From IMG/VR virus record IMGVR_UViG_3300012020_000003, positions 32,001 to 96,000 of that record: a stretch of 64,000 nucleotides of DNA; one strand, written 5' to 3'. The stretch comes from a virus (lineage: Duplodnaviria > Caudoviricetes). A model generated the notes under the pieces. That model ran no database searches. It was not told the DNA's origin and saw nothing but the letters and a program-made list of their open reading frames with translations. The position numbers and the translations under genes are program-made. This document shows, piece by piece, positions 1,011 through 47,055 of this stretch (position 1 is the stretch's first letter; every line of letters starts with the position of its first letter).

Positions 1011-1170
1011 GTATTGTAATTAAAAATAACTGTTATGAGTACTAAAAAGAAAGGAATTTTGTGCATCTGTAAGGAATGGGCAAAATACTTAAGAAACAAA
1101 AAGCCATTTTGGTCTTCACACAGACAAGCAACGAAAAAGCATATTCAAAAAAGTTTGAATTATTAATATT

Positions 1171-1245
1171 GGCACATTGGAGTAATTTGGTCAACTCGTC
1201 AGATTTTCAATCTGGAGATTACGGGTTCGAACCCCGTATGTGTCA
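1171..1245 (+). tRNA. tRNA-Glu(TTC)
   Basis: ggcacat/atgtgtc acceptor; tcaga-ttTTCaa-tctgg; GGTTCGAACCC. Confidence 0.9.
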
Positions 1246-1256
1246 CATTTTTATAT

Positions 1257-1339
1257 TGATTGTTATACCGTAGGGGTAGCGGGACTGACTGTAAATCAGT
1301 TGCCTTAGGGCTCGGGTGGTTCGACTCCATCACAATCAA
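1257..1339 (+). tRNA. tRNA-Tyr(GTA)
   Basis: actga-ctGTAaa-tcagt; variable arm; ggtgg-ttcgact-ccatc. Confidence 0.85.
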
Positions 1340-1353
1340 CCGCAATATTAATT

Positions 1354-1461
1354 CAACCGTTTTAGGTTACATTGCAGGAGTAAACGGGTATTGAGCTGGC
1401 GTAAACCAAGCAATTATCGGACCTAAAATAGGACGTGTAGATCCAATCATGAAGGTGGTTG
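1354..1461 (+). ncRNA. Candidate multi-branch structured RNA
   Basis: caacc/ggttg closing stem, ttttaggt/acctaaaa, inner hairpins; GC-richer than flanks; no ORF. Confidence 0.4.
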
Positions 1462-1525
1462 TGAAGCGTTATAAAAATTTGCAATTATTAATATCTTAAA
1501 TGATAGTTGCTACTTTTAATATAAA

Positions 1526-1538
1526 TGTTCTTTGAAAT
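1526..1538 (+). promoter_or_regulatory. boxA-like antitermination signal
   Basis: tGTTCTTTGAAAT resembles the rrn boxA and lies just ahead of tRNA genes. Confidence 0.45.
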
Positions 1539-1551
1539 GCTGGAATGAAAT

Positions 1552-1633
1552 GCCGAAGTAACCGAGCTCGTCTTCGAAACGAGTATTTCCGTAATTGGAG
1601 TTGTAAATGTAGGTTCGAATCCTACCTTCGGTG
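1552..1633 (+). tRNA. Non-canonical tRNA-Arg(TCG), no D-arm, D-loop-like motif after the anticodon arm
   Basis: gccgaag/cttcggt acceptor; ctcgt-ctTCGaa-acgag; taattgg 3' of anticodon arm; gtagg-ttcgaat-cctac. Confidence 0.7.
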
Positions 1634-1641
1634 CTAAATAT

Positions 1642-1724
1642 TACCAAGTGGTGAAACTGGGAGACACTCCGGTCGTGAGACTGGATCACTAAGTTGAGTA
1701 TAGGTTCGAATCCTATCTTGGTAG
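1642..1724 (+). tRNA. Leu-type tRNA-like gene with irregular anticodon loop (possibly GAG)
   Basis: taccaag/cttggta; Leu-type D arm; tccggt-cgtgag-actgga (6- or 8-nt loop); canonical T arm. Confidence 0.6.
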
Positions 1725-1796
1725 CAAAGCTTATCTTACTTCTAAATCAAACTTTTAAATTGAAATTAGATAAGCAATTTATTTTTTAATTACAAT

Positions 1797-1874
1797 CTCG
1801 GCGTAGGCTCCTTGTTGGAGAACCTGACTGTCACTCAGGTAAAATTAACGGATAGTAACCGTTCGTCGGGGCCA
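1797..1874 (+). tRNA. tRNA-Asp(GTC) with non-canonical T-loop
   Basis: ctcggcg/cgtcggg+gCCA; cctga-ctGTCac-tcagg; T arm aacgg-atagtaa-ccgtt. Confidence 0.8.
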
Positions 1875-1922
1875 ATGTATTTATCATTTTTCTGGATACT
1901 ATTTATATGTATAATCCTACGT

Positions 1923-2675
1923 ATGAAAGAATGTCCGAAATGTAATATACAACACGAAAAACCTGGAAAATTTTGTTCTAGAAATTGTGCTAATAGCAGA
2001 GGTCCATTACCATTAATTAAACGAATATTTATCAAGTGTCCAGTGTGCGACACATTGACCGGTAATCCTAAATTTTGCTCAGTTAAATGTTCCAATAAAA
2101 TAAGGATAAATAAACGAATTTTCATTCGCAAAATAAATCCTACAAAACAATGTCCAACGTGTTACGCTAATCATACAAAATCGGGTAAATACTGTTCACG
2201 CGATTGTAGTTATAAACGAATTTCTACAGATGAACAACGAGCTCAAAGGAGTATAAAGTCTAAAGAAACGAATGCTAAATATTGGACTCCTGAAAATCGA
2301 CAGAAACATTCAAGACTAATGAAACGAATAGTCGCAGACGATCCGGAAAGTTATTCAACTAATAATGTATCCGGTAGAGTTAAAAATATTGAATACAATG
2401 GTTATAAGGTTAAAGGATCATGGGAGTTGATTGTAGCTCAAGTATTAGATAAATATAATATTACATGGACTAATAACGTTTCAGGATATGAGTATTATTG
2501 GAATGGTACTAAACATTTATATTTTCCAGATTTTTATTTACCTGAATATAATGTCTTTATTGAAGTTAAAGGATATCAAAGAGATAGAGATTTATGTAAA
2601 TGGAAAGATTTCCCATACGATTTGATGATATTAAAGGAAAATGAAATTAATGAATTGAAATCATTTATAAATTAA
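1923..2675 (+). CDS. Homing-type PD-(D/E)XK endonuclease with N-terminal Cys-rich Zn-finger repeats
   Basis: Three CPxC...FCSxxC repeats; YFPDFYLP...FIEVKG nuclease motif; start moved to ATG1923. Confidence 0.75.
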   Translation: MKECPKCNIQHEKPGKFCSRNCANSRGPLPLIKRIFIKCPVCDTLTGNPKFCSVKCSNKIRINKRIFIRKINPTKQCPTCYANHTKSGKYCSRDCSYKRISTDEQRAQRSIKSKETNAKYWTPENRQKHSRLMKRIVADDPESYSTNNVSGRVKNIEYNGYKVKGSWELIVAQVLDKYNITWTNNVSGYEYYWNGTKHLYFPDFYLPEYNVFIEVKGYQRDRDLCKWKDFPYDLMILKENEINELKSFIN

Positions 2676-2681
2676 TTATAT

Positions 2682-2754
2682 TGCGCGGTAGAGAAATTGG
2701 TTATCTTGCAGGACTCATGATCCTGTGTTCCAGGTTCGAGTCCTGGCTGCGCTA
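2682..2754 (+). tRNA. tRNA-Met(CAT), possibly initiator-like
   Basis: cagga-ctCATga-tcctg; 1:72 mismatch (T:T). Confidence 0.85.
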
Positions 2755-2856
2755 CATGAGACATGGAGTAATTAACCAGGTCGAGTAATGCTTAGGTTCA
2801 TATATCTTAAAGTGAATTGACGTCAATAGTTTCTGAACAGCGGCATTTTTTAAGTT

Positions 2857-2938
2857 CTGTAGGTTTGAGATATTGGAATTTCACCCGGATGCGCAGAGTC
2901 CGGCATTAATGCAGGTTCAATTCCTGCACCTACAGCCA
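2857..2938 (+). tRNA. tRNA-like gene with 9-nt anticodon loop, ending in CCA
   Basis: ctgtaggt/acctacag+CCA; ccgga-tgcgcagag-tccgg; gcagg-ttcaatt-cctgc. Confidence 0.55.
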
Positions 2939-3015
2939 ATATGATGTCAGTAAACGTACCTAACGATTCTGAAAAGAACCGAGGACAAAATTCTTAGGTC
3001 AACATCGTATTTTAT

Positions 3016-3090
3016 CTGGTAGCGATACATTGGTGTGTTTACGCGGCTTGGATCCGTGGTTGGTTGCTGGTTCGAATCCAGCCTATCAGA
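3016..3090 (+). tRNA. tRNA-Pro(TGG)
   Basis: ctggtag/ctatcag; cgcgg-ctTGGat-ccgtg; GGTTCGAATCC. Confidence 0.85.
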
Positions 3091-3202
3091 CAATAAAGAA
3101 GCATAATTCATAAGGTTTGTCAGTAGACATGTTAAATGGAATTGATAAGATTATAACTTTAGATTGACTGAATAATAGTAGGTTAATTTTAGATAATAAT
3201 TC

Positions 3203-3278
3203 GGGGTTTGGGGCTGCTCGGCGTGGCCACTTCGTTTGCAATGAAGACAACAGATGAAATCGTTCTTCATACTCTCCA
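3203..3278 (+). tRNA. tRNA-Ala(TGC), divergent T arm
   Basis: cttcg-ttTGCaa-tgaag; G3:U70; T arm atgaa-atcgttc-ttcat. Confidence 0.7.
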
Positions 3279-3287
3279 CAAAAACAT

Positions 3288-3443
3288 GCGGTATTGGTGA
3301 AATTGGTTAGACACCTTAAAGTTTAATTCGTTCAATAATTGTATAATAAAAACGATGGCTACTTTTTGTAAGGAATTTTAATAAAATGGTTTAGCGGCTA
3401 GTATAAAATAAATTCTTGCAGGTTCGAATCCTGCATATCATTC
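3288..3443 (+). other. tRNA shell (Leu-type D arm + T arm) with ~95-nt insert replacing the anticodon arm
   Basis: gcggtat-tg-gtgaaattggttagacac ... gcagg-ttcgaat-cctgc-atatcat. Confidence 0.5.
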
Positions 3444-3460
3444 TAAAAGAATTACAGAAT

Positions 3461-3640
3461 ATGAGTTACAAAGAAGAATTTTATAATAAAGTTGGTAAGT
3501 TTAATATAGATGAGCTTAAATTGTTTTTTGAAAAAGAAAAATATACCTTTGTTGATTTTAGAAACGAATACCAAAGTTGGAAATCTGAAGAAGAACAGTA
3601 TAAAAAAAGATTGAATAATTTAGATAAAATAAAACAATAA
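3461..3640 (+). CDS. Hypothetical protein
   Basis: ORF from ATG3461 (upstream part of the listed ORF overlaps a T arm). Confidence 0.5.
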   Translation: MSYKEEFYNKVGKFNIDELKLFFEKEKYTFVDFRNEYQSWKSEEEQYKKRLNNLDKIKQ

Positions 3641-3843
3641 TAAAACACATTATGAATTTAGAAGAATTAGCCGAAATCAAGCTTGGCAAAATACCTGAAT
3701 TATATTATATTGAATATGATGGTTGTCCAGTTATGTTATCTTCTGGTAAGACAGCCTTGCTTTACTAACCAAAAGGTGTAGGGAATATAGAATTTAATTG
3801 TAAGCGGTTAGGAACCTACAATAGAATTGAACATTTTTATTAC

Positions 3844-3917
3844 GCTTCTGACGCATAAATGATGGTGCCCCTGATTTGTAACCAGGAATAGAGTCGGTTT
3901 GATCCCGACCAGAAGCT
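3844..3917 (+). tRNA. tRNA-Thr(TGT)
   Basis: gcttctg/cagaagc; cctga-ttTGTaa-ccagg. Confidence 0.85.
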
Positions 3918-3934
3918 CAACTAATTTAATAATC

Positions 3935-4327
3935 ATGATTACTGGATTCTACAGATTAGAACATTTGGATACCAAGACTTTAAAGAAGTTTTATAAAGAT
4001 GTGTTGATGATGTCGTATTTAGTATTGTTAGAATCTAAATATACGGATAAACATCCGTCAAGACGTGGATCCGATAATAAATATACCATCAGCGATTTTT
4101 TGAGAATGGTGTCTTCTAAAAACCATAATACATGCGTAGATAGATCGATTCAACATAGATTTACAAACTCAGATGGTTCAATAGAAATAATGCCAGATTG
4201 CGATAAAGGGGAAATTGGATTTAAATTACACATGGGGTTGGATAAGGAATGGCATCAAATTTCGTTTTATGTCACATTAGACAATTTAAAAATGTTAACT
4301 GAAAAATATAATTTAATAATGTCATGA
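3935..4327 (+). CDS. Hypothetical protein
   Basis: ORF from ATG3935; ATGA overlap with next gene. Confidence 0.65.
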   Translation: MITGFYRLEHLDTKTLKKFYKDVLMMSYLVLLESKYTDKHPSRRGSDNKYTISDFLRMVSSKNHNTCVDRSIQHRFTNSDGSIEIMPDCDKGEIGFKLHMGLDKEWHQISFYVTLDNLKMLTEKYNLIMS

Positions 4328-4674
4328 TCAGAGACCAAGAGCTTTTAGATAAAATTTTTAATAACCATAAGATGCTTATCAGTTATTATCCATATAAAAC
4401 TGGTGGTTATGGAGATGATAATGTTATTGCTAAAACTGATAATTGGTCAGGTAATCAGTATGATTATGCTATTAAAAATTTTGTATTTAACATTGTTCAT
4501 TTGGGTGCAGCATTAGCAGGTAGAAAATCTGGAGATAATAAATCAGCTGTTGAATTAAGAGTTGATGGTATAGATTTTCCAATTTTTTGTTATTATTATG
4601 ATGGATTATGTAGCATAACCAAAAAAATCAAAAGTGAACATGAACCAATTGAAATACATTGGGTTTTATGGTAA
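4324..4674 (+). CDS. Hypothetical protein
   Basis: 116-aa ORF, translationally coupled. Confidence 0.65.
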   Translation: MIRDQELLDKIFNNHKMLISYYPYKTGGYGDDNVIAKTDNWSGNQYDYAIKNFVFNIVHLGAALAGRKSGDNKSAVELRVDGIDFPIFCYYYDGLCSITKKIKSEHEPIEIHWVLW

Positions 4675-4687
4675 ATATTTATAACAT

Positions 4688-4760
<73 letters not shown>

Positions 4761-4861
4761 CCGGGATTCCTTCGTCGATTGATAATGTCAATAGGTCAAT
4801 ACGAAGCAAATAAATACAATGGCGAAAGCAATGAAGCAAAGTAGCAACGAAGGCAGTTTAT

Positions 4862-4933
4862 GGTGATGTAGCTCAGATGGTAGAGCGATCGGTTGAAACC
4901 CGGTAGGCGGGATCTCGGAATTCTCCATTACCA
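4862..4933 (+). tRNA. tRNA-Phe(GAA), divergent T-loop
   Basis: ggtgatg/cattacc; atcgg-ttGAAac-ccggt; T loop ctcggaa. Confidence 0.8.
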
Positions 4934-4943
4934 CTTTATTAAT

Positions 4944-5016
4944 GCGAGTGTCGTATAATGGCTTATTATGCTAGGCTTCCAACCTTGAGATGACGTTTCG
5001 ATTACGTCCATTCGCT
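4944..5016 (+). tRNA. tRNA-Gly(TCC)
   Basis: gcgagtg/cattcgc; ctagg-ctTCCaa-ccttg. Confidence 0.88.
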
Positions 5017-5108
5017 CTAAATATGTTAATAATTTGTTAATGTCATTCTAATGTTGTGATTATTTAAAATAACGTTGTATATTTGTTGAGTAATTAAAAA
5101 CAAAGAAT

Positions 5109-5396
5109 ATGGCTTACTTAACAATTGAACGATTCGAAGAACCAAGGGTAAAGGCTTATCATATCGATGGTACTTTTATTGGTATAATCTACAATCACAA
5201 TGAATTCAATAAATTTCGAATTCAAGCTTTACAAAATCAGGTCACTGATCAATATTATTTTATGTGGGATGAGTTAAAAATAACTCTCGACAATAAAGGT
5301 AATATGTCACATTTTCCGAGAGGTTTATATGACCAAGTTCAACAAGACATGGGAACAATGTTTCGAATTGCACGTGAACAAAATATTAAAATATGA
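5109..5396 (+). CDS. Hypothetical protein
   Basis: 95-aa ORF after promoter TATATTTG 5078-5085. Confidence 0.65.
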   Translation: MAYLTIERFEEPRVKAYHIDGTFIGIIYNHNEFNKFRIQALQNQVTDQYYFMWDELKITLDNKGNMSHFPRGLYDQVQQDMGTMFRIAREQNIKI

Positions 5397-5917
5397 TACC
5401 AATTAAAAAAGAACCTAAAGAACTTTACAAAGAGTTTAAGACTTATGAAAAGTGTAAGTTTTGCCGAAAAGAAACAGATACTTGGCACGAAAAAACAAAC
5501 ACACCAGTTTGTAAAATTTGTGCAAAATCTCATAAAGTAGCAGACTTGTAGCTATTGGCTATAACGGTTGGGTATAAGCGATGCAAGATTAATGGCAGTT
5601 TTTGCACAATTTTTAAAGACCAAAGGTTTAACTGAAAATCAAATGACTCAGGTAAAATTAAGAATGCCGAAATATTGGAAACAAATACTCCAAGTATCAA
5701 ATATTATTAAATTAGATAGTTTAATCATCCAATCGAAAGTAGCATGATCAGCGAAACCTTAACCGCAGATACTCTGCATGAAGTAGTTGCACTCAAAGAT
5801 TTATATTTCAGAAAATACCACCCAGCTGGGTACGGAACATCTTCAACTGAACCGAAGATTATTAATGATAAATGGACAATTACAGTTTCCAGATTTAATT
5901 CATGTGATTAATTAAAT

Positions 5918-5997
5918 GGCCCAATGGTGAAATTGGCAGACACGCTCCTTTTAAGCGGGAGTCCGCAAGGGTGTAGGTTCGAGTCCTACTTGGGCTA
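5918..5997 (+). tRNA. tRNA-Leu(TAA)
   Basis: ggcccaa/ttgggct; ctcct-ttTAAgc-gggag; variable arm. Confidence 0.9.
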
Positions 5998-6065
5998 CTC
6001 TATTTAAGCTAGTTTATGAACAGCCTAGATATTCGGTGCGATGCCGATTAATACGATTTTTATTT

Positions 6066-6233
6066 TTAATGATGTAAACTTATCAGTAAGGTTAAACTGA
6101 ATTCAATATTAAATGTCGCAGTAAATTCATTGGGTTGATACCCCAAATGTTCCAGGTGCAAATCCTCGGTGGACCAAACGAGAGTCTGTAGAATTAAACA
6201 TTTATAAAGATTAATCCAGAAACGTAGCATTAA
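6066..6233 (+). ncRNA. Candidate ~170-nt structured RNA
   Basis: ttaatg/cattaa closing stem; cagt/actg, ttggg/cccaa, aatgtt/aacatt, agg-tgcaaat-cct hairpins. Confidence 0.35.
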
Positions 6234-6262
6234 TATAATTTAATAGATAAACAATTAATTAA

Positions 6263-6352
6263 AAAGGCTGGTTATGTCACTCATAAGAAGTAGGCGGAAG
6301 CTCTGAAATCAGAAGGTGTAACCGAAAATATTGTCACATTGAACCAGCCTTT
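6263..6352 (+). ncRNA. Candidate multi-branch structured RNA
   Basis: 11-bp aaaggctggtt/aaccagccttt stem enclosing gc-ggaa-gc, tctga-aa-tcaga and ggt-gta-acc hairpins. Confidence 0.45.
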
Positions 6353-6359
6353 GTTTAAT

Positions 6360-6431
6360 TGAAATGTAGTGTAATGGTTAGCACATGAATTTTTGAAATT
6401 CATAGTTGTGGTTCGAATCCATGCATTTCAA
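6360..6431 (+). tRNA. tRNA-Gln(TTG)
   Basis: tgaaatg/catttca; tgaat-ttTTGaa-attca. Confidence 0.88.
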
Positions 6432-6487
6432 CGGTATTGATACAGTGAAGACCTGTTGGTGGAATTAGAAAAAATAAATAATTACAT

Positions 6488-6560
6488 GGTGTTTGTAGCT
6501 TAATTGGTAGAGCGCTTCCCTGTGAAGGAAGATGACAGGGTTCGAATCCCGCTAACACCC
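6488..6560 (+). tRNA. tRNA-His(GTG)
   Basis: cttcc-ctGTGaa-ggaag; G-1 present. Confidence 0.88.
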
Positions 6561-6612
6561 TTTGAAGTTGTTTTTGTAATTTCTAAACTATTTATAGTAA
6601 GGAGATTATTAA

Positions 6613-7590
6613 ATGACAAAAGTTAGATATGGTACTCATAAAAAGTATCATTTTATTTATAAAACCACAAATATTTTATCTGGAAAGTATTATATTGGAA
6701 TGCATTCAACAGATAATTTGGATGATGGTTATTTAGGATCAGGTAAATATTTAAAACGTTCAATTAATAAGCATGGTAAAGAAAATCATAAAATTGAAAT
6801 ATTAGAATATTTAGATTCAAGAGAAGAGTTAGCAAAAAGGGAAGCTGAAATAGTCAATCTTCAGGAAATTGCTAAGAAAGAATGTATGAATTTGAAAGTT
6901 GGCGGTATAGGTGGATGGACATCCGAAATGCAAAAGGAGAATGCTAAAAAAAGTAATCAACGACAAGCATGGTTAAGAATAAATGATCCAATCTGGAATC
7001 AAAAAATTGCCGATAATAAATCCAAGGCACTTAAAGAAAGTTATTTATCGGGCTCACGTACCAAGGAAACATTTTATAATTGGTTAGGTAAAACACATTC
7101 AACTGCTTCTATTCAAAAAATGAAAGATCACCATGCCTTAACTGGTAGGCAAAAGGGTGAAAACAATTCTAATTTTGGAATGGTTTGGATTCATTCAATA
7201 GCAGAATTAAAATCTATTAAAATCAAAAAAACAGTGTTAGATGAATATTTAACAAATGGATATGAATTAGGCAGAGTTACAAATTTTGATAAGAAATTGT
7301 ATCCGGAAAAGTATATTAAACTTCCCGATACATTTGAATATAACGGCGTTGTAATTAATAAACGAAAAATAAATTCTATACAAAGAATATTTAATATAGA
7401 CGTTAAATTTAATGGTATAGAAATGTTACATCAAATATTATTTGAATTGTATAATGTACAAAATTTAAGCACAACCGATATCGGCAAACAATTTAATGTT
7501 GATCACGTTACTATTATAGCATATTTAAAATTATGTAACATAGAAAGAAGGCAATATAATAAACACCCAAAAATAAAAAATAATGATTAA
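6613..7590 (+). CDS. GIY-YIG homing endonuclease (Seg-like) with NUMOD3-like and HTH regions
   Basis: FIYKTTNILSGKYYIG...YLGSG...E...N; GKTHS..SIQKM; GENNSNFG; located in the tRNA cluster. Confidence 0.85.
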   Translation: MTKVRYGTHKKYHFIYKTTNILSGKYYIGMHSTDNLDDGYLGSGKYLKRSINKHGKENHKIEILEYLDSREELAKREAEIVNLQEIAKKECMNLKVGGIGGWTSEMQKENAKKSNQRQAWLRINDPIWNQKIADNKSKALKESYLSGSRTKETFYNWLGKTHSTASIQKMKDHHALTGRQKGENNSNFGMVWIHSIAELKSIKIKKTVLDEYLTNGYELGRVTNFDKKLYPEKYIKLPDTFEYNGVVINKRKINSIQRIFNIDVKFNGIEMLHQILFELYNVQNLSTTDIGKQFNVDHVTIIAYLKLCNIERRQYNKHPKIKNND

Positions 7591-7789
7591 ATCAATATTA
7601 CAGCATGTCGCCAATCAAATTTTAAAAAATGTCATTAACGCAAAATCATTAAAGCTAGCCGAAAACTCATATAGAGTCGGTATGAATTTTGATAACTTTT
7701 GCATATCCACATTTGGAATTTATTTAGATTAAATGGACAGAAGGAAAATAGTTGGCACTAAAATAATAAAATTTTAAACTATTTATGTT

Positions 7790-8302
7790 ATGATTAAATT
7801 TACCGAATTATTAACTGAACGATATGTCAATTTGTTTAAAACTGACATTGTGAAATATATTGATGAAATTTGGGAGATTCTACAAAAATCATATGCTCCT
7901 ATAGGCGGATTTTTAACTGCAAGTTCGAAAGAAGATTTAATTCGGAAATCATGGATGGCCAAATGCGTTAAAAAGGATAATAAGCTCGTAGCAGTTAGAC
8001 TCTATAAAGATCAATATGGAAGAAAAGGCATTGCAGGTGGAACCGATGGATCATCAATTGGAAAGCAATGGTTTATGAAAATGATTCAGGAAGATATTAA
8101 GTTTAGCAGGTCCTGGACAGAAGTATCTGGAGCAATGGAGCATATTTTAAGAAAAAATGGCGCTGAGCCGATTCCTAATTATATGGCCAAAGAGCTTACT
8201 GGTAAAGATATTCTGGAATTTAATCCAGACGGATATCATTATACTCGGATGATAGCGGGTGAACCACATGAAAAAATAATATTCGGTACCGTCAATAAAT
8301 AA
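7790..8302 (+). CDS. Hypothetical phage protein
   Basis: 170-aa ORF preceded by the ACTATTTAT motif. Confidence 0.7.
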   Translation: MIKFTELLTERYVNLFKTDIVKYIDEIWEILQKSYAPIGGFLTASSKEDLIRKSWMAKCVKKDNKLVAVRLYKDQYGRKGIAGGTDGSSIGKQWFMKMIQEDIKFSRSWTEVSGAMEHILRKNGAEPIPNYMAKELTGKDILEFNPDGYHYTRMIAGEPHEKIIFGTVNK

Positions 8303-8361
8303 CATTTTATTAACACAATTATTGAATTAATTTATGTACATTTGTGAGTAAATAATTAAAT

Positions 8362-8805
8362 ATGTTAATTTATATAGCTGGGTTAAATTCAACCAAAAAG
8401 GATTGGATTGACTTAAAATTGAAAGAGTTTTCAAATGATACCTATTCTTATTTCTTATTGAATGATGCCATTCCGGATATAACTGAAGATGCAGTGATAA
8501 TAGCCCATTCAATGGGATGCTTAAACGCCATGCGTCTATGGGATATATATCCGGATAAGATTAAGACAATTCAATTAATCAATCCAACTAACCAAATTTT
8601 TGATTTTGATTTTGATTTTAAGTCTGCGCCAGTAACAATTCATCTAGGTGAAAAAGATGAGATCCTAAATATGCCTAAATTATATAAAGATATTGAAGTG
8701 AATTATATTAAATTGATAGTCTATAAAGATCTATCACACAGATTTGATGAAAACCAATTTAACGAAATATTATCAAATGTTGAACCTTATTTAAATATAG
8801 TTTAA
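8362..8805 (+). CDS. Small alpha/beta hydrolase (YqiA/esterase-like)
   Basis: IAGLNS oxyanion region, AHSMG nucleophile elbow, GEKDE Asp, SHRF His. Confidence 0.75.
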   Translation: MLIYIAGLNSTKKDWIDLKLKEFSNDTYSYFLLNDAIPDITEDAVIIAHSMGCLNAMRLWDIYPDKIKTIQLINPTNQIFDFDFDFKSAPVTIHLGEKDEILNMPKLYKDIEVNYIKLIVYKDLSHRFDENQFNEILSNVEPYLNIV

Positions 8806-8812
8806 TTTTTTT

Positions 8813-8893
8813 GCTCTCGTGGTGTAATGGCAGGCACGCCAGTTTTAGAAACTGGTGTCGTAAGACGTGTCGGTTCAAGTCCGACCGAGAGTA
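8813..8893 (+). tRNA. tRNA-Leu(TAG)
   Basis: gctctcg/cgagagt; ccagt-ttTAGaa-actgg; variable arm. Confidence 0.9.
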
Positions 8894-8967
8894 CTTGGGC
8901 CGAAGATTAATTGCGCCATTTCGTGATCATATCTTATTCAACTGCTGAAATGCATCGGTTCAACCAT

Positions 8968-9054
8968 GGAAATGTGACAGAGTGCTAATGTAGTCACCTG
9001 CTAAGTGAACGTCAGGTAGAAATGCCTGCGGAGGTTGGATCCCTCCCGTTTCCG
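8968..9054 (+). tRNA. tRNA-Ser(GCT)
   Basis: ggaaatg/cgtttcc; tcac-ctGCTaa-gtga; long variable arm. Confidence 0.85.
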
Positions 9055-9352
9055 CTAAATTGATATTAAATATGATATTGATAAAGACAAAACTTGAAAT
9101 CGGCAGATTTATTCAAGCTTCAACTGATGGCGATGACATAAGACAGATCGATGCTGTCGATTTGATACCTTTGCAACTCGGTACATTTGAATTAATACAT
9201 TCAATGACAGATAGTGATGAGTTTCGACTTGCCCAAACAATGATATTGAATAAATTAATGAAAAATGTTAATAAAATGTTAATTCCACCACAGATCATAA
9301 ATAATTGAAAAATATGTTATATATTTGTTGAGTAATTAAAACAATAAATATT

Positions 9353-9598
9353 ATGACAACTTTTAAAGTCGGCACTGAAATTGAAATCAGAGAGAATCAC
9401 AAACCTTTATACCAGATATTTGGTAACAAAGGTAAGATTAAAGCAATAAATACCACGTGTCAACAGTATAATCAGACTGAACGGACTGAATATTATGATG
9501 TCGAAGTTATTTCATTGCTTTCAAGAAAGATGGAAGTGATGCCAGTCAAAAAAATACATGTTATACCACTTAAAGGGGTGGCGATACACCAAATATAA
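9353..9598 (+). CDS. Hypothetical protein
   Basis: ORF after promoter 9320-9327. Confidence 0.6.
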   Translation: MTTFKVGTEIEIRENHKPLYQIFGNKGKIKAINTTCQQYNQTERTEYYDVEVISLLSRKMEVMPVKKIHVIPLKGVAIHQI

Positions 9599-10056
9599 TG
9601 GTTGGAATATTAATTATTGATCCACCGGATGTAACACGGAAACATAATAAGCAATCCAGCTGGAAACGAACAGCCATATTGCAATTTCCTGGAGACGAAA
9701 CTGATAAAATGTGGCGTTGGTATATAAAGAAACGATATGGGTTAGAATTAAACCAACCATTAAGGCAATGCCACATAACAATTGTCAATGATAGATATCA
9801 GGACACTGCAAAATGGAATGAATTTAAAAGTAAATTTAACCATACTAACATTAATATTGATGTTAGTCGGGAACTTCGCAGTAATGGAGAACATTGGTGG
9901 TTAAGAGTTGATGAAAATGAAGAAATTAAAGCCATTAGGACATTTTTAAATTTAGGCGAGCCCTTTTTTAAATACCATTTGACTATTGGTCTAGCAAACT
10001 CCAGAAATATTAAACATTCAGAATATATTTTAAGACAAATTTTAAATTATTATTAA
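9598..10056 (+). CDS. 2H phosphoesterase family protein (Acb1/LigT-like candidate)
   Basis: Two HxT motifs (CHITIV, YHLTIG) about 70 aa apart. Confidence 0.7.
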   Translation: MVGILIIDPPDVTRKHNKQSSWKRTAILQFPGDETDKMWRWYIKKRYGLELNQPLRQCHITIVNDRYQDTAKWNEFKSKFNHTNINIDVSRELRSNGEHWWLRVDENEEIKAIRTFLNLGEPFFKYHLTIGLANSRNIKHSEYILRQILNYY

Positions 10057-10057
10057 T

Positions 10058-10372
10058 ATGCAAACGTTTATAATCGTCGTAGTTGCAGTTTTTGCTTTAG
10101 GAGCATTAATTAATGAATTATTATCAGCTTTCAACATCAGTAAACCATATCCAGAGATTTTTGGAACTTTGTTTTTTACTATATCGACTGTCTTAGGAAT
10201 TTTAGTAATTTCTAAATTAATGTTCGTATTGTTGGCACTGGCATTTGTACACCAGGAAAATAAGTTACACTGGGATAAATATGCATCATATCGCACATTT
10301 GATTATACGGTTTGTATATTAGGGTTTGGTTATCAATTATATTCGATTTATCAATATATCTATTCTTTATAA
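10058..10372 (+). CDS. Membrane protein
   Basis: 3-4 hydrophobic segments. Confidence 0.6.
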   Translation: MQTFIIVVVAVFALGALINELLSAFNISKPYPEIFGTLFFTISTVLGILVISKLMFVLLALAFVHQENKLHWDKYASYRTFDYTVCILGFGYQLYSIYQYIYSL

Positions 10373-10391
10373 ACGGCAACTTTACTAATAT

Positions 10392-10468
10392 GGTCGGGTA
10401 CTCAATATTGAATCTCGAGTTAGGTCTGCAAAACTTAATAAATGTGAGATAGTCACTCACCCTGGCTT
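10392..10468 (+). tRNA. tRNA-Cys(GCA) with non-canonical T-loop
   Basis: ggtcggg/cctggct; taggt-ctGCAaa-actta; T arm gtgag-atagtca-ctcac. Confidence 0.75.
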
Positions 10469-10529
10469 CAAAAGGTTAGGGCAGGCCACTTAATAAAATA
10501 ATTAATACTAATTATATAAAGGAGACTTT

Positions 10530-11219
10530 ATGTATAATAGTATTAACGCCGAATCTGAACTAATTTGTAAATTTTGTAATTCATTAAAACCAACGAAAAA
10601 TTCACTTAGACAACATGAGATTAGATGCAAATCTAATCCTGACAAATTAATAATTACATCTAATTTCATTAAATATAATCAAAAAGTAAGAAATGGCGAA
10701 ATTCAAGGCCAAAATCAATATACAAAGGCTGAAAGGTTATGTCTTCCTAAACCTAAGTTATCTAAAGAAACACTTAGAAAAATGTCTGAAAAGGCATCAC
10801 AGTATGTTTGGTCAAAACAAAGAAAATCACAGCATTCCGAAAGTATGCAAAACGCTGTAAAGAAAAATCCTGAATCGTACTCATCAAAAAATGTCTCCGG
10901 AAGAGTTAAAAACATCAATTATGAAGGCATCATACTTAATGGGAACTGGGAACTGGAGTTTGTTCTATGGATGAATAGGAATAATATTGTCTGGCAAAGA
11001 AATTCGAATGGGTTTAAATATTATTGGCCTGAATCGGGGAAAATTCATTTGTATTTCCCGGATTTTTATTTGCCGGAATTAAATTTATATGTTGAAATTA
11101 AAGGTTATCAAAGAGATAGAGATTTATGTAAATGGAGAGCGGTTGATAATCTTATCGTAATTAAACAAAAAGAAATAAAAGAAATTCGTGCAAACACATT
11201 TACATTGGCACATAACTAA
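10530..11219 (+). CDS. Homing-type PD-(D/E)XK endonuclease, paralog of 1923..2675
   Basis: CKFC..HEIRC Zn finger; shared PESYS.NVSGRVKNI.Y and YFPDFYLPE..E.KGYQRDRDLCKW. Confidence 0.75.
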   Translation: MYNSINAESELICKFCNSLKPTKNSLRQHEIRCKSNPDKLIITSNFIKYNQKVRNGEIQGQNQYTKAERLCLPKPKLSKETLRKMSEKASQYVWSKQRKSQHSESMQNAVKKNPESYSSKNVSGRVKNINYEGIILNGNWELEFVLWMNRNNIVWQRNSNGFKYYWPESGKIHLYFPDFYLPELNLYVEIKGYQRDRDLCKWRAVDNLIVIKQKEIKEIRANTFTLAHN

Positions 11220-11234
11220 TTTAATAATTCAGAA

Positions 11235-11311
11235 TGTCTCGTATCCCCTCATTCTTATACAATGTAGAAAGGGTAATCGGTTACATGTCGGTTCGATCCC
11301 GACCGAGACAA
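11235..11311 (+). tRNA. Non-canonical tRNA-Ile(TAT), no D-arm, D-loop-like motif after the anticodon arm
   Basis: tgtctcg/cgagaca; ccct-catt-ctTATac-aatg-tagaa-aggg-taatcgg; gtcgg-ttcgatc-ccgac. Confidence 0.7.
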
Positions 11312-11470
11312 CTAAAAATAATATATAATGACAATTTTAGAAGTCAATGAAATCGATATGAATGATTATCCAGATTTTTCAGATGCTTATATTTCAAAAG
11401 CAGAAAAGGACGGCCAGTAGGGGAAACGGTCGTAACCCTGTTTTTAATTTATTAATTTAAAATTTTAAAT

Positions 11471-11680
11471 ATGTTTACTCCAATACCATGCATTCAATAC
11501 ATTGGTCTGTTTGATATTGACGCCGAAAACAATTTGACGCCCAAAGTTATATATGTTAGTCCAACACCTAGTGGGGCCACGCAATATTACGTTAGGAAAA
11601 ACGGAAACAGAATATTACAAATAACCGAAGCAGAGTTTCTAAAAGCAACCGAGCTTGCAGCATTCGTACAAAAATGGTAA
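11471..11680 (+). CDS. Hypothetical protein
   Basis: 69-aa ORF. Confidence 0.55.
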   Translation: MFTPIPCIQYIGLFDIDAENNLTPKVIYVSPTPSGATQYYVRKNGNRILQITEAEFLKATELAAFVQKW

Positions 11681-11886
11681 TTATAAGTTTAATTCTAACA
11701 TTCTTTATATTATATTTACGGTATTATGCTATTAATTGGATATCGTTTTACGAAAGTAAATGGGTTTCCGAAAGTATGATGGTAATTATTATGTTTTCCA
11801 TGTTTCTTGGACCTATATTCGCAGGATTGTTAGGTGTAGCAGCATTATTTTATGGAATTCATTATTTATTAAATCTTTGGTTATGA
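11674..11886 (+). CDS. Small membrane protein
   Basis: Hydrophobic 70-aa ORF. Confidence 0.5.
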   Translation: MVIISLILTFFILYLRYYAINWISFYESKWVSESMMVIIMFSMFLGPIFAGLLGVAALFYGIHYLLNLWL

Positions 11887-12122
11887 TGAATAATATTAAA
11901 AATTTCTTCATAATGCTGAAGAATTTATTTTCAAAAACAATGGCCATAATATTATTATCGACAATGTGTATATTGCATATTATGTTTGTTGTAATGTTGT
12001 TTACTGCACATTCTGGTGCAACTGGGTTGGGTATAATACTTTTCCTTTGGTGGTTCTATATTATTACATTTGTGGATTAAGATTTCTTCAGTTTTGTAAC
12101 TATTTATCATAAAGGATTTAAT

Positions 12123-12383
12123 ATGAATTACCAAGATTTTTTCAATGAACTTATTAAACGATGGTCAGCTGAAAAGCCTGAATTTTTTAAGACATTGCAA
12201 AATATTTCGATAGGAGTTTTATTAGTAACTGGCATTCCAGCAGCATTATCAAAGTTTGGAGTTGATATAAATTTCATACCTTTGTGGGTTAATGCCAGTT
12301 TGAGTTTATTGTCAGCAGGAGCTACCATGATAACACAATTAACAGTTTCGACCGCTGAAAAACTTAGATTAATGATTGATTAA
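12123..12383 (+). CDS. Putative holin-like membrane protein
   Basis: Basic N-terminus (KRWSAEKPEFFK), two TM helices, preceded by the ACTATTTAT motif. Confidence 0.55.
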   Translation: MNYQDFFNELIKRWSAEKPEFFKTLQNISIGVLLVTGIPAALSKFGVDINFIPLWVNASLSLLSAGATMITQLTVSTAEKLRLMID

Positions 12384-12388
12384 TACAT

Positions 12389-12460
12389 TGGGAATTGGTG
12401 TAATGGTTAGCACTCTACCCTGATACGGTGGCAGTTCGGGTTCGAGTCCCGGATTTCCTA
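12389..12460 (+). tRNA. tRNA-Ile(GAT)
   Basis: ctacc-ctGATac-ggtgg; GGTTCGAGTCC. Confidence 0.88.
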
Positions 12461-12469
12461 CAAATTAAT

Positions 12470-12549
12470 GCGGATATAGTCACACCATTCTTCTAAAATG
12501 GTATAGTGTAATGGATCTGAAAATGTTAGTTCGAGTCTAACTATCCGTA
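12470..12549 (+). tRNA. Non-canonical tRNA-Arg(TCT), no D-arm, D-loop-like motif after the anticodon arm
   Basis: gcggata/tatccgt; cac-accatt-ctTCTaa-aatggt-ata-gtg-taatgg; gttag-ttcgagt-ctaac. Confidence 0.7.
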
Positions 12550-12747
12550 CTAAATAATTTAACTTATGAAAATTAGAAATACCGATGGCGAACTACACAT
12601 TATGCCATCTTCATCTATTAACTGCAACAATGAAAAATTAGTTATGTATGGTGAATCATTATTAGATTTCCAGATTATTGCCGAAATAATAAAATTGATT
12701 AATAATCCGAAAAATACAACTCAATTCATCTTACAAAAATTAGAATC

Positions 12748-13203
12748 ATGCAATTCAGGATCTTAGATTCACAATTTAAGATAGACGATGGTATTTCATA
12801 TATCAAAAATTATATCGCTGCTAATCCAAACCTTATAGTGAGTATTGGCTGTGATTCACAAAATTTTAGAAAATACTGTGCTTATGTCACTGCGATAGCT
12901 CTTCGTACTCCAAAAGCAGGAGCACATGTAATTTACCAGTCGCAGTTTGTACCAAAAATCAAAGATAAATATTCTAGACTTTGGAGAGAAACAGAAGAAT
13001 CAGTATCATTAGCTAAAATTTTAATTGACCATGGAATAAACATTGATTTAATTGAATTAGATTTTAATAAATCGAAAACAGCCGGATCGAATATGATGAT
13101 TGCACCATCCGTTGGGTATGTAGTAGGATTAGGATTTACCCCGTTGACCAAACCAGACGAATTGATAGCTGTTAGAGCTGCAGACTGCATATTGAAAAGA
13201 TAA
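12748..13203 (+). CDS. RNase H-like YkuK (DUF458) family protein
   Basis: IGCDSQ...GAHVIY...RLWRETEES...ELDFN...RAADC. Confidence 0.75.
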   Translation: MQFRILDSQFKIDDGISYIKNYIAANPNLIVSIGCDSQNFRKYCAYVTAIALRTPKAGAHVIYQSQFVPKIKDKYSRLWRETEESVSLAKILIDHGINIDLIELDFNKSKTAGSNMMIAPSVGYVVGLGFTPLTKPDELIAVRAADCILKR

Positions 13204-22905: not shown

Positions 22906-23964
22906 ATGAGTAAAGAACCTATATTTAATTCAACGATTGCCGCCGAATTATTAGATAAAAAATTAGTTCGACGACAAACCCACCCAGAATTGCCATTAAC
23001 AATTTGGAATTATACCCAACAAGCTCAGTTTGAGAAAGCTTGGGATGAATATCCGATTCTATTACAGTTGCGTGGCCTAGTTACTGATAATGAATTCAAT
23101 ATAGTAGCCAGGCCATTCAAAAAGTTCTTCAATATTGAAGAAAACCGACATATACCAACTAATGGATATGATGTCTATGCGAAAATGGATGGATCATTGG
23201 GTATCATATTCAATTATGCGGGAAAATGGCATTGTGCTACTCGTGGATCGTTCACTTCTGACCAAGCAATTAAAGGATCCGAATTGATGCAGCCATATTT
23301 AATGGATTTTGATGATACCTGCACCTATTTATGTGAAATCATTTATAAAAACAACCAGGTTGTTATTAGGTATCCGTTCGAAGACATTATTCTCCTTGGG
23401 GTGATTCATAAAACTGGACTTGAATTAGAGCCACATTCATGCATGCAGCATTCACTGATTAGAAAATGTCCAAAACTCAGATCAAATAAAACTTATTATA
23501 ACAGCAGCACACCATTAGAATCTTTAAAGAATCATATACCAGACGATGAAGAAGGATATGTCGTTAAATTTAAAAATGGAGATCGTTGTAAAATTAAAGG
23601 GGCAAATTATCTACGGTTACATCGAATTTTAACTAATATCACGTCATATTCAATCTGGAATACTGTTAATGATCCTGAATCATTTAGCAGAATATTAGAA
23701 AATATCCCAGATGAAATGTTTGATCCGATATCTATATTTTATACGGCGTTAATAGAAGCATTTGAAGCCCGACGGTATTATTTTCATACACTTGCAGAAG
23801 ACCTTCGTATGAAATATGGTAATGATATGAAAATTATGGCATCCGTAGTTAAAACAACTTATAAAAATGAGTCAGCCATGGTTTTTGCTGCGCTAAATGG
23901 CATGGAAAGTCGGCTGAACGAGCTAATTCACCGAGAAATTAAGCCAAAATATTTTAAATTTTAG
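22906..23964 (+). CDS. RNA ligase 1 (T4 Rnl1-like)
   Basis: WNY, RGLV, RPFKKFFN, KMDGSLG, TRGSF, EEGYVV, KIKG. Confidence 0.88.
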   Translation: MSKEPIFNSTIAAELLDKKLVRRQTHPELPLTIWNYTQQAQFEKAWDEYPILLQLRGLVTDNEFNIVARPFKKFFNIEENRHIPTNGYDVYAKMDGSLGIIFNYAGKWHCATRGSFTSDQAIKGSELMQPYLMDFDDTCTYLCEIIYKNNQVVIRYPFEDIILLGVIHKTGLELEPHSCMQHSLIRKCPKLRSNKTYYNSSTPLESLKNHIPDDEEGYVVKFKNGDRCKIKGANYLRLHRILTNITSYSIWNTVNDPESFSRILENIPDEMFDPISIFYTALIEAFEARRYYFHTLAEDLRMKYGNDMKIMASVVKTTYKNESAMVFAALNGMESRLNELIHREIKPKYFKF

Positions 23965-24037: not shown

Positions 24038-24508
24038 ATGAAACCAAAAATAGTCATTAATATTGGCATACCAGCGTCTGGAAAATCGACCTGTTCTGCT
24101 GCCATGGTTGAAGACCCTACATGGGTTAAGACTGGTCGAGATGATTTTCGATACATGTTAACAGATAAAGGAGTATGTTCTGGAAAAATCGAACAAATTA
24201 TTACAAAAATTCAGAGAAATTTGGTTTCTGAGTGTGTTAATTCCGGATTAAATGTGATTATTGATAACTGCAACTGTAACTACAATCATATCATATCGTG
24301 GAAAGAATTGGTTGGTGAAACGGCTGACGTTTTTTATAGGCTCTTTCGGATGCCAGTAGAAGCTGCTATAATTATTGATAGCAGGCGAGTCAGATCGGTT
24401 GGGCCAGATGTTATTAAAAAATTTAATGGCATGCTTGCAGCACTAGATTTCGATAAAATTCATAAATTTGGAATTAAAAATTTTGATCAATATGATGAAC
24501 ATCACTGA
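24038..24508 (+). CDS. Polynucleotide kinase, kinase domain only
   Basis: GIPASGKST, RDDFR, IIDN, R..SV; no DxDGT phosphatase domain. Confidence 0.8.
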   Translation: MKPKIVINIGIPASGKSTCSAAMVEDPTWVKTGRDDFRYMLTDKGVCSGKIEQIITKIQRNLVSECVNSGLNVIIDNCNCNYNHIISWKELVGETADVFYRLFRMPVEAAIIIDSRRVRSVGPDVIKKFNGMLAALDFDKIHKFGIKNFDQYDEHH

Positions 24509-40573: not shown

Positions 40574-40605
40574 AATTTACTCTTAATACTCGTTATTCTT
40601 ATTTG

Positions 40606-40681
40606 CGCGGTGTATAGGAATCGAACCTATTAACAGCGGACCCAATGTCCGTATGCACGACCATCATACATCAAACACCGC
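40606..40681 (-). tRNA. tRNA-like gene with 5-nt anticodon loop
   Basis: On the minus strand: gcggtgt/acaccgc; cggac-attgg-gtccg; atagg-ttcgatt-cctat. Confidence 0.6.
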
Positions 40682-40774: not shown

Positions 40775-40847
40775 GCTGGTTAATAGGGAATCCAACCCTA
40801 ATCCTGAGCTCCAGTAACGGCCTCTGTGCAACGTACACCATAACCAA
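40775..40847 (-). other. Degenerate tRNA-like element, anticodon unresolved
   Basis: ttggtta/taaccag; gtgt-acgtt-gcac D-like arm; taggg-ttggatt-cccta. Confidence 0.4.
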
Positions 40848-40895
40848 TCGGCGTTTTCGAACACGCCATTTCCGGATTAATTACTTCCGTTTTTG

Positions 40896-40996
40896 TAGTC
40901 AGGACAGGATTCGAACCTGTATGAGTTGACGGTATTAACCTTCCTTTTCAACTCTATCTACCAACCGTTAGCGTCTATCAATTCCGCCACCTGACT
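40896..40996 (-). other. tRNA shell (Leu-type) with no anticodon stem and a long internal hairpin
   Basis: agtcagg/cctgact; gcggaattgatagacgc; gagttga/tcaactc hairpin; acagg-ttcgaat-cctgt. Confidence 0.6.
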
Positions 40997-46966: not shown

Positions 46967-46981
46967 TTTTATTTTATTTAG

Positions 46982-47055
46982 TAGGTGCAATGGGATTCGA
47001 ACCCATTTCACTATCCAGCCCATGCCGGATCGCTTAACCCTAAAGCTCTACACCT
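46982..47055 (-). tRNA. tRNA-like gene with shrunken anticodon loop
   Basis: aggtgta/tgcacct; gctt-tagggtt-aagc; tccggc-atgg-gctgga; atggg-ttcgaat-cccat. Confidence 0.6.

Follow-up and report, generated by a model that had tools for sequence, protein, structure and literature searches.

A tRNA array with three unusual members

The stretch of DNA analysed here, called the window throughout, consists of 64,000 nucleotides (nt) and corresponds to bases 32001-96000 of the 110,555-bp IMG/VR virus record IMGVR_UViG_3300012020_000003 (G+C content 32%, CheckV completeness 59%). A plus-strand tRNA array spans window positions 1100-12600, with small open reading frames (ORFs) in between, some of which encode GIY-YIG and DUF7487 homing-endonuclease-like proteins. 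Three genes inside this array are the subject of this report: tRNA-Arg(TCG) at 1552-1633, tRNA-Ile(TAT) at 11235-11311 and tRNA-Arg(TCT) at 12470-12549, all on the plus strand. They sit 8 nt from canonical tRNA genes and should therefore be transcribed and processed together with them; canonical tRNA-Ile(GAT), for example (12389-12461, plus strand), ends 8 nt before the Arg-TCT gene. In the record as a whole, ARAGORN and the Rfam tRNA model find a canonical Ile-GAT tRNA, and neither a canonical Arg tRNA nor a canonical Ile-UAU tRNA. None of the three unusual genes encodes CCA.

The Arg-TCG gene is 82 nt long. Its acceptor stem, GCCGAAG/CTTCGGT with G1.U72 as the first pair, is followed by TA plus 6 nt, an 8-nt 5' linker that places the gene in what we call subtype B. 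The linker starts with U8 and A9 (1559-1560, read from the sequence) and continues with AC (1561-1562), the 5' strand of a short helix termed P1, and CGA (1563-1565), the 5' strand of a second helix termed X. The anticodon arm CTCGT-CTTCGAA-ACGAG (1567-1583, anticodon TCG at 1574-1576) has a 5-bp stem and a 7-nt loop. Between it and the T arm lie 25 nt with TAATTGG among them. In order, these hold the 3' strand of X, CCG (1589-1591), which is assigned from the sequence and from covariation in the family and faces CGA as C-G, G-C and A.C; the D-loop-like strand TAATTGGA (1592-1599), read as U, A14, A15, UU, G18, G19 and A20; the 3' strand of P1, GT (1600-1601), the partner of AC by subtype-B covariation; and a tail, TGTAAAT (1602-1608), whose last base is U48. 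The T arm, GTAGG-TTCGAAT-CCTAC (1609-1625), is placed both by the sequence and by Infernal.

The Ile-TAT gene (77 nt, discriminator A) belongs to subtype A, with a 7-nt 5' linker: the acceptor stem TGTCTCG/CGAGACA is followed by TA plus 5 nt. The X strands are CCC (11245-11247) and GGG (11271-11273), which occupy columns 11-13 and 37-39 of alignment A3, the covariation alignment of subtype A. The anticodon arm is TCATT-CTTATAC-AATGT (anticodon TAT at 11256-11258), with U.U as its top pair, and the 21 nt between anticodon and T arms include the D-loop-like TAATCGG, then U20 and the tail TACAT (together 11274-11286), the last base again being U48. The T arm is GTCGG-TTCGATC-CCGAC.

The Arg-TCT gene (80 nt, subtype B, anticodon TCT at 12492-12494) has the acceptor stem GCGGATA/TATCCGT, with G1.U72, and then TA plus 6 nt. 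In P1, GT (12479-12480) faces TC (12516-12517) as G-C plus U.U. In X, CAC (12481-12483) pairs with GTG (12506-12508), an assignment that comes from the sequence and from covariation and that is also present in the RNAfold minimum-energy fold. The anticodon arm CCATT-CTTCTAA-AATGG is separated by 23 nt, including TAATGG, from the T arm GTTAG-TTCGAGT-CTAAC; read from the sequence, the D-loop-like strand is TAATGGA (12509-12515), and the P1 strand TC and the tail TGAAAAT (12516-12524) lead to U48 as the last base.

All three genes share with cloverleaf tRNAs a 7-bp acceptor stem with an unpaired discriminator, a 5-bp/7-nt anticodon arm with U33 and a purine at 37, and a 5-bp T stem with a TTCRA loop. 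The D hairpin between nt 9 and 26 is absent: the gap between the acceptor and anticodon stems is 7-8 nt, and RNAalifold finds no hairpin there. A preliminary description, made from the window sequence alone, had reported normal acceptor, anticodon and T arms, a missing D hairpin and a TAAT(N)GG motif after the anticodon arm at these three loci, and the sequence reads in the same way here. Its estimate of 5-8 nt for the gap was right in that the gap is short, and slightly off in the exact value. The pairing that it had proposed in two of the genes, between the strand after the acceptor and the bases before the motif, is present in the register CCC/GGG in Ile-TAT and CAC/GTG in Arg-TCT; in the third gene, Arg-TCG, the counterpart CGA/CCG has two Watson-Crick pairs plus A.C.

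With Infernal, the Rfam tRNA model (RF00005, gathering cut-off 29 bits) gives 38.2 bits to Arg-TCG and 40.3 bits to Arg-TCT, in both cases by deleting 11-15 D-arm model positions and inserting 20-22 nt in the variable region. Ile-TAT has no match to this model even at E<=10, and no Rfam family besides tRNA matched any of the three genes.

A phage-borne family

Relatives were collected in two ways. The first scan pattern contained only the D-loop-like motif and the start of the T arm, and was run on viral contigs; a match was counted as having the architecture if a 7-bp acceptor stem lay at the right distance and an anticodon arm came directly after a 7-8-nt linker. This pattern found at least 118 stretches in viral contigs, with the architecture complete in 96 of the 121 matches listed. 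The same pattern on prokaryote genomes gave the architecture in 6 of 120 among the matches listed; all six are on contigs of metagenome-assembled genomes, three of them beside tRNA arrays, and we read them as phage DNA rather than as cellular tRNAs. Two relaxed patterns, in which positions 15 and 48 were left free, then yielded 168 distinct sequences, which come from 151 loci and fall into 118 clusters at 80% identity; three mis-parsed canonical tRNAs are excluded from this set.

Members are 73-92 nt long, with 17-35 nt between the anticodon and T arms. All 168 have TA after the acceptor stem and a purine at position 37 (A in 167, G in one), and the anticodon loops retain U33. In the subtype A and B alignments the acceptor columns are 98% paired, with covariation. 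G.U is the first acceptor pair in 42 of the 168, including both window Arg genes (1552/1632 and 12470/12548).

A covariance model built from 27 family sequences (R1) scores Arg-TCG at 85.4 bits, Arg-TCT at 77.6 bits and Ile-TAT at 43.7 bits, and all other window tRNAs at no more than 24 bits, a gap that puts the architecture far beyond chance. R1 finds no further family copy in the 110.5-kb record. Judged by sequence and by these scores, the three window genes are part of a large, apparently undescribed family of phage tRNAs, rather than the three unrelated sequences of the preliminary description: they are homologous.

Several cultured phages carry members: Pseudomonas phage PA11 and nine PA11-like records, Pseudomonas phage Boevelstad, Maribacter phage Panino, about 40 Streptomyces phages of the Mildred21 type, and 24 Vibrio phage records. 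The crAss-like Kehishuvirus 'tikkala', a Bacteroides phage, has one. Streptomyces phage Mildred21 (MF155946.1) has four, at 73703-73779, 86379-86453, 91367-91442 and 94857-94933, and also encodes a CCA-adding enzyme, a Ro-like protein, an RNA ligase, a polynucleotide kinase and a transfer-messenger RNA (tmRNA). Among the classical phages T5, T4, KVP40, Bxz1 and G there is no clear member: the best scores in four of them are 30.5-37.5 bits, over matches of 71-75 nt and in the range of canonical tRNAs, and G has no match.

Sequences close to the window itself come from metagenomes. The stretch 11000-12800 is present in wastewater and freshwater metagenomes from 13 studies, and a variant in a wastewater run, 12548 T>C, changes G1.U72 of Arg-TCT to G1-C72. 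Against GenBank phages, megablast of the array returns only short matches to canonical tRNAs, and blastn of the window Arg-TCT gene against named phages returns no match. With the RNase H-like ORF as a protein query, one distant locus was found (35% identity), where the Arg and Ile tRNAs are canonical only.

Two observations were made alongside these searches. On the minus strand of the window, the covariance model has weak matches at 46982-47055, 46563-46631 and 40842-40909, near a tRNA-Gln called by ARAGORN at 40605-40681; the first of them has a good T arm, with a 7-bp stem and 4-nt loop in the place of the anticodon arm, and overlaps the 3' end of an ORF at 46511-47023 (minus strand). In another viral contig, a permuted tmRNA (L054:1875-2071, minus strand; RF04321, 74.6 bits) adjoins a family member, and tmRNA genes are also found in the Mildred21 and Panino arrays.

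Covariation of the rewired pairing

The two subtypes differ in the linker, which is TA-N-C-n-n-N (7 nt) in subtype A and TA-NN-C-n-n-N (8 nt) in subtype B; in this collection subtype B is confined to Arg genes (41 of 41). In both, the linker C-n-n pairs with the n-n-G directly 5' of T-A-R to form helix X. For covariation, sequences were aligned with MAFFT, which is blind to structure, and 500 shuffles served as a control. In the subtype-B alignment (27 sequences), 94.3% of the X cells are paired, compared with 63.1% after shuffling; in the subtype-A alignment (55 sequences) the values are 93.1% and 60.9%, and in both cases 0 of 500 shuffles reached as high. When the partner strand is slid by 1-3 columns in the subtype-B alignment, pairing falls to 36-48%.

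The same helix emerges when X is anchored on the motif and the acceptor end, without regard to pairing: all three pairs are formed in 132 of the 168 members (shuffled mean 33, maximum 48). The middle pair is kept in 167 of 168 while changing its identity (GC 71, CG 47, UA 24, AU 22). The first pair is C-G in 168 of 168, where the G was set by the search pattern and the C was left free; two Mildred21 genes found by the model have A-U in place of this otherwise invariant pair. RNAalifold predicts X de novo. Thus the helix that had been proposed between the post-acceptor strand and the bases before the motif is real and covaries, and relatives keep its compensatory pairing.

Helix P1 is formed in subtype B between the two extra bases of the linker and the two that come next after GG-A. 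The pair 10-51 is GC in 15, AU in nine, UA in two and CG in one sequence of the 27-sequence alignment, and P1 is fully paired in 32 of the 41 subtype-B sequences (shuffled mean 14.4). In composition (R10-Y, Y11-R) it matches the canonical pairs 10-25 and 11-24. Together, the covariation of X and P1 argues that the rewired pairing is itself under selection.

Other candidate pairs fared less well. A P1-like pair in subtype A (column 10 with 52) is unsupported, as only 63.6% of its cells are paired. Also in subtype A, C14-G33 is paired in 77%, and alternative partners of the top anticodon-stem base (15-31 or 15-32) gave mixed results. Some variants have a longer bulge between the anticodon stem and X, and in three of these there is an extra, covarying 4-bp helix. 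These three (L015:3837-3927, L039:660-751 and L048:545-636; 91-92 nt) have AGTC/GACT or GGAC/GTCC, with both sides changed. The extra helix encloses the 3' strand of X and the D-loop-like motif, and would make a pseudoknot if X also forms.

The motif as a D loop

The motif can be read as U-A14-R15-(N1-2)-G18-G19-N20, and with this reading the core signature of U8, A14, R15:Y48 and G18G19 is complete in the sequence. Positions 15 and 48, both left free in the relaxed patterns, are A/U in 144 of the 168 members, G/C in 22, A/C in one and G/U in one; among pattern matches that lack the architecture, the same classes number 52, 48, 43 and 22. Fisher's exact test on this association gives p = 2.7e-25, uncorrected for relatedness. 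The 22 G/C cases are spread over 13 clusters (80% identity), both subtypes and the Ile-TAT, Ile-GAT, CAT, Arg-TCG, GCG, TCT and CCT anticodons. In the sequences compared, positions 15 and 48 covary as the Levitt pair R15:Y48 should.

The base after GG follows the anticodon. It is A in 122 of 122 Arg members; in the 38 Ile members it is U in 31, A in four and G in three, and in the seven CAT members U in six and C in one. All 45 Ile and CAT members have A as their discriminator; in the Arg members this base is G in 52, U in 35, A in 34 and C in one. For comparison, a review of tRNA identity gives A20, with C35, as the main determinant for E. coli arginyl-tRNA synthetase (ArgRS), and includes A73, U20 and U21 in bacterial Ile identity (PMC9976931). 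By these positions, the D-loop-like strand carries synthetase signals that match the anticodon, and such tracking is hard to explain unless the RNAs are charged. The earlier proposal that the GG loop is supplied from the 3' strand has therefore held up: the strand appears to act as a D loop, with covarying R15:Y48 and with a base after GG that obeys the position-20 rules of ArgRS and isoleucyl-tRNA synthetase (IleRS).

Anticodons and codon use

The 168 anticodons are TCT (66), TAT (30), ACG (26), CCT (14), TCG (13), GAT (8), CAT (7), GCG (2), CCG (1) and CTT (1), so that 167 of 168 members have an Arg or Ile/CAT anticodon. Two collections made in other ways agree. All 20 extra covariance-model matches, which are independent of the patterns, are Arg or Ile/CAT, as are 107 of the 111 candidates from a motif-free descriptor scan of 2.83 Mb of tRNA-rich loci; the remaining four are mis-parsed canonical or class II tRNAs.

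The preliminary description had linked the architecture to the reading of A-ending codons, as the three window genes do. This rationale does not extend to the family, which also has ACG, CCT, GAT, CAT, GCG and CCG; the near restriction to Arg and Ile points to a link with amino acid identity as the common factor. A change from TCT to TAT, together with A20 to U and A73, would switch identity, and descent from one ancestor is thus a simple explanation that the sequences suggest.

In the ORFs of this phage with at least 120 aa, AGA makes up 40% and CGA 17% of Arg codons, and AUA 37% of Ile codons. In the 49.6-kb genome of Pseudomonas phage PA11, the Arg-UCU family gene is the sole match to the tRNA model. 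Beside its unusual genes, Mildred21 carries Ile-GAT, Ile-TAT and Arg-CCT tRNAs of the canonical form, and the window has the canonical Ile-GAT tRNA described above.

Detection by standard tools

ARAGORN misses 158 of the 168 members. It gives the right anticodon for eight, seven of them with other ends, and a wrong anticodon for two. In the window it misses Ile-TAT and Arg-TCT, and calls Arg-TCG at 1544-1634 with a wrong, shifted acceptor. Of 24 members in 20 loci, 9 reach the gathering score of the Rfam tRNA model, all at 32-41 bits; the scores are 38.7 bits for the PA11 gene, 25.1 bits for that of Panino and 24.5 bits for that of Kehishuvirus. The claim that standard scanners miss these genes is thus borne out for ARAGORN and in part for the Rfam model.

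Database annotation reflects this. In 81 listed GenBank records with near-full matches, a tRNA feature is present at the place in three, none with the identity that the anticodon implies: two are labelled tRNA-Phe(gaa) for a CTTCGAA loop, which is that of Arg-TCG, and one tRNA-Leu. Of the four copies in Mildred21, two are unannotated, one is 'tRNA-OTHER' and one is tRNA-Phe(gaa) although it is Arg-TCG.

Proposed fold

We consider it probable, on comparative grounds, that the three genes encode working elongator tRNAs for Arg (UCG and UCU) and Ile (UAU), and that these belong to a phage-borne class with a rewired D domain. Comparison of the family supports both helices, X and P1, as well as the covarying pair 15:48 and the link of positions 20 and 73 with identity. 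From these features would follow an L-shaped molecule that host ArgRS or IleRS charges and that supplies decoding of AGA, CGA and AUA.

In the proposed fold, the 7-bp acceptor stem would lead to U8 and A9, then to one spacer nt (subtype A) or two (subtype B). The C-n-n strand would next pair with n-n-G, 3-8 nt downstream of the anticodon stem, so that the anticodon arm is nested inside X and presumably stacked on it, with X replacing the D stem. The 3' strand leaving X would supply A14 for the U8:A14 pair, R15 for R15:Y48, GG for the T loop and position 20 for the synthetase; a short A-rich tail would then connect this D-loop-like strand to Y48 and the T arm. Subtype B would have P1 as well, formed by pairing of the two nt after A9 with the two after A20.

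The linker, X and the anticodon stem share one unbroken 5' strand, and X most likely occupies the position of the D stem with the roles of the strands reversed. The D-loop-like strand would exit from the 3' side of X, in the way that position 14 comes after 13 in a normal tRNA. Subtype A would have about ten stacked layers below U8:A14, as in canonical tRNA, if A9 is paired with the invariant U that precedes A14; P1 may sit beside the main stack rather than within it. The role of such tRNAs in this phage would be the decoding of AGA, CGA and AUA, which its AT-rich genome uses heavily.

Several points weigh against this interpretation. The search patterns were derived from the window genes and fixed GTA, GG, A47 and GTTCGA, so that ascertainment accounts for part of the conservation seen at these letters, and the p-values take no account of kinship. 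X is imperfect in 36 of the 168 members; the window genes themselves have A.C in X of Arg-TCG and U.U at the top of the Ile anticodon stem, and the crAss-like copy has two acceptor mismatches. The geometry of subtype B is uncertain, as only A20 would lie between G19 and P1, a tighter arrangement than in the canonical D loop. Canonical isoacceptors coexist with members in some genomes, so the class is not always needed for decoding. Finally, the case for the fold is comparative throughout, drawn from sequence data.

Alternative explanations

One alternative accepts that the class is functional and places the reason for its rewired core in conflict with the host: tRNAs of this kind would escape host tRNA-targeting defences, or tRNA quality control, that recognise the canonical D arm. 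The family is enriched in viral sequences (96 of 121 against 6 of 120 in prokaryote genomes, among the matches listed), and the phage has what looks like a tRNA-repair module: an Rnl1-family RNA ligase at 22906-23964 (plus strand; profile matches PF09511 and phrog_562) is followed by a P-loop kinase-like ORF (AAA_33) at 24038-24508 (plus strand). T4 uses a ligase/kinase tRNA-repair module against an anticodon nuclease, and we take the pair found here to resemble it, which makes a tRNA-directed conflict plausible in this phage. Known anticodon nucleases, however, act on the anticodon loop, where these tRNAs show nothing unusual, and a single ancestor with anticodon switches would account equally well for the confinement to Arg and Ile. 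Evasion of defences is accordingly a guess, and we think it unlikely.

It is also rather improbable that the genes encode uncharged, tRNA-like RNAs outside translation, which would have a regulatory role or would divert host nucleases that cleave tRNA, or toxins that modify it, in the manner of decoys or sponges. A partner other than the ribosome could recognise the unusual core, the adjoining ligase and kinase-like ORFs would suit such a role, and the coexisting canonical isoacceptors would leave decoding to others in some genomes. Against this, the identity elements track the anticodon (A20 with NCN in 122 of 122, A73 with NAU in 45 of 45), U33 and A37 are kept in the anticodon loops, PA11 retains its family gene as the sole tRNA-model match, and the three window anticodons fit codons that the phage uses heavily.

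A third proposal, that a cloverleaf is restored after transcription by rearrangement or splicing, or exists already through an overlooked alternative pairing, draws on the permuted and split tRNA genes known in some algae and archaea. It is very hard to sustain here: the acceptor strands keep their usual 5'-to-3' order, a D hairpin cannot be obtained by any other pairing (the D arm is deleted by Infernal, and RNAalifold finds none), and the covariation of X and P1 shows selection on the rewired pairing itself. That the genes are decaying pseudogenes or fragments that lost the D arm is scarcely credible, for although ARAGORN and annotation pipelines mostly skip them and their RF00005 scores are low or below threshold, there are compensatory changes in two novel helices and one tertiary pair across 118 clusters, the acceptor, anticodon and T stems are intact, and the identity elements are conserved.

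Relation to known tRNAs

In sequence, the members of the phage class have much in common with canonical class I tRNAs (RF00005): the 7-bp acceptor, the 5-bp/7-nt anticodon arm with U33 and A37, the TTCRA T arm, U8, A14, R15:Y48, G18G19, the identity rules at positions 20 and 73, and the location in phage arrays. They differ in having the D-loop-like strand 3' of the anticodon arm and a new 3-bp helix that encloses that arm.

With the D-armless mitochondrial tRNAs (metazoan tRNA-Ser(AGY) and those of nematodes) the class shares a short connector in place of the D hairpin. Those tRNAs are described, in parts of two papers, as shortened, with the contact between D and T loops lost and a flexible boomerang or Y shape (PMC7609411, PMC11551756). 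The phage class, in contrast, keeps full length, GG, a canonical T loop and 15:48, adds compensating helices and, if it works, uses the bacterial cytosolic machinery. An assignment to the mitochondrial type is excluded by the length of 73-92 nt, the TTCRA loop, the GG motif and the 15:48 covariation.

Class II tRNAs (Leu, Ser, Tyr), tRNA-Sec and allo-tRNAs also have extra nt between the anticodon and T arms, which the Rfam model treats as a variable-region insertion in the phage genes. They retain the D arm and a self-contained extra hairpin, however, whereas the extra strand of the phage class pairs with the 5' linker; the missing D arm, that pairing and the Arg/Ile anticodons exclude class II. 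A permuted or split tRNA gene is excluded as well, with the 5' and 3' acceptor strands flanking the genes in normal order. Mimics of tRNA, such as skipping-rope RNA (tLRNA-1, RF02924) and the tRNA-like structures of plant viruses, are not adaptors; the sequence of their anticodon arm varies, and they lack a set of identity elements linked to the anticodon. Mimics of tRNA with altered connectivity are the subject of a 2026 preprint, and these are likewise not adaptors.

The nearest functional precedent is artificial. According to sections of a 2024 paper, E. coli HisRS, EF-Tu and the ribosome accept 'mini HisT', a tRNA made without a D arm (PMC11551756), which suggests that a tRNA lacking the D hairpin is feasible in bacteria. 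By the same sections, mini HisT is man-made and 62 nt long, nothing in it stands in for the D domain, and it accumulates only with a pnp mutation (PMC11551756). The phage class is natural, and the contacts of the D domain would be kept by another connectivity.

The 2024 paper states that all known bacterial tRNAs are cloverleaves (PMC11551756), and neither 'phage' nor 'virus' occurs as a word in a review of non-canonical tRNAs from 2020 (PMC7609411). A full-text literature search gave no account of such phage tRNAs; subscription journals and supplements lay outside it, so an earlier description is possible.

Other features of the window

Four further tRNA-like genes of the array, all on the plus strand, have peculiarities of their own. 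In the gene at 1642-1725, 8 nt 3' of Arg-TCG, the anticodon loop comprises 8 nt, TCGTGAGA, and the variable arm is long; its ARAGORN label is tRNA-?(His|Ser)(gtga) and its RF00005 score 34.4 bits. It could decode four bases or suppress frameshifts, or else be a class II tRNA whose structure is drawn wrongly. The sequence at 2858-2935 scores 24.8 bits, under the Rfam cut-off, and is missed by ARAGORN; RNAfold gives it a 6-bp D stem, a 6-bp anticodon stem and the loop GCGCAGA, without U33. Two more are missed by ARAGORN and found by the Rfam tRNA model: one at 3844-3917 (36.8 bits), with the loop TTTGTAA (Thr-TGT), and one at 4862-4933 (48 bits), with the loop TTGAAAC (Phe-GAA) and an odd T loop, TCGGAAT.

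Outside the array, the minus strand encodes an adenylosuccinate-synthetase-family protein at 47495-48709 (PF00709, 1.1e-24; phrog_1211). PurZ belongs to this family, so adenine in the phage DNA may be replaced by 2-aminoadenine. A transposase (phrog_506, 5.7e-141) is encoded at 52174-53373 on the minus strand, inside the phage record.

Implications

Members of the family occur in cultured phage-host pairs, so the question of their function is directly testable. They also mark a systematic gap in phage annotation, where Arg and Ile tRNAs are absent or misnamed, which skews studies of codon adaptation in phages. As natural scaffolds, they may be of use in synthetic biology, perhaps orthogonal to some host enzymes, and to structural biology they would offer another solution to the L-shape problem.

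For the tRNAs of bacteria and their phages, a diverse and covarying family with another connectivity would be a natural counterexample to the view that all are cloverleaves. We lean towards regarding it as the first natural non-cloverleaf tRNA class in bacterial cytoplasmic translation: a phage-specific third architecture beside classes I and II, dedicated to Arg and Ile, spread across phages of Actinomycetota, Pseudomonadota and Bacteroidota, and mostly missed by annotation. It would mean that what the tRNA core needs is the set of tertiary contacts and position 20, and not the D hairpin.

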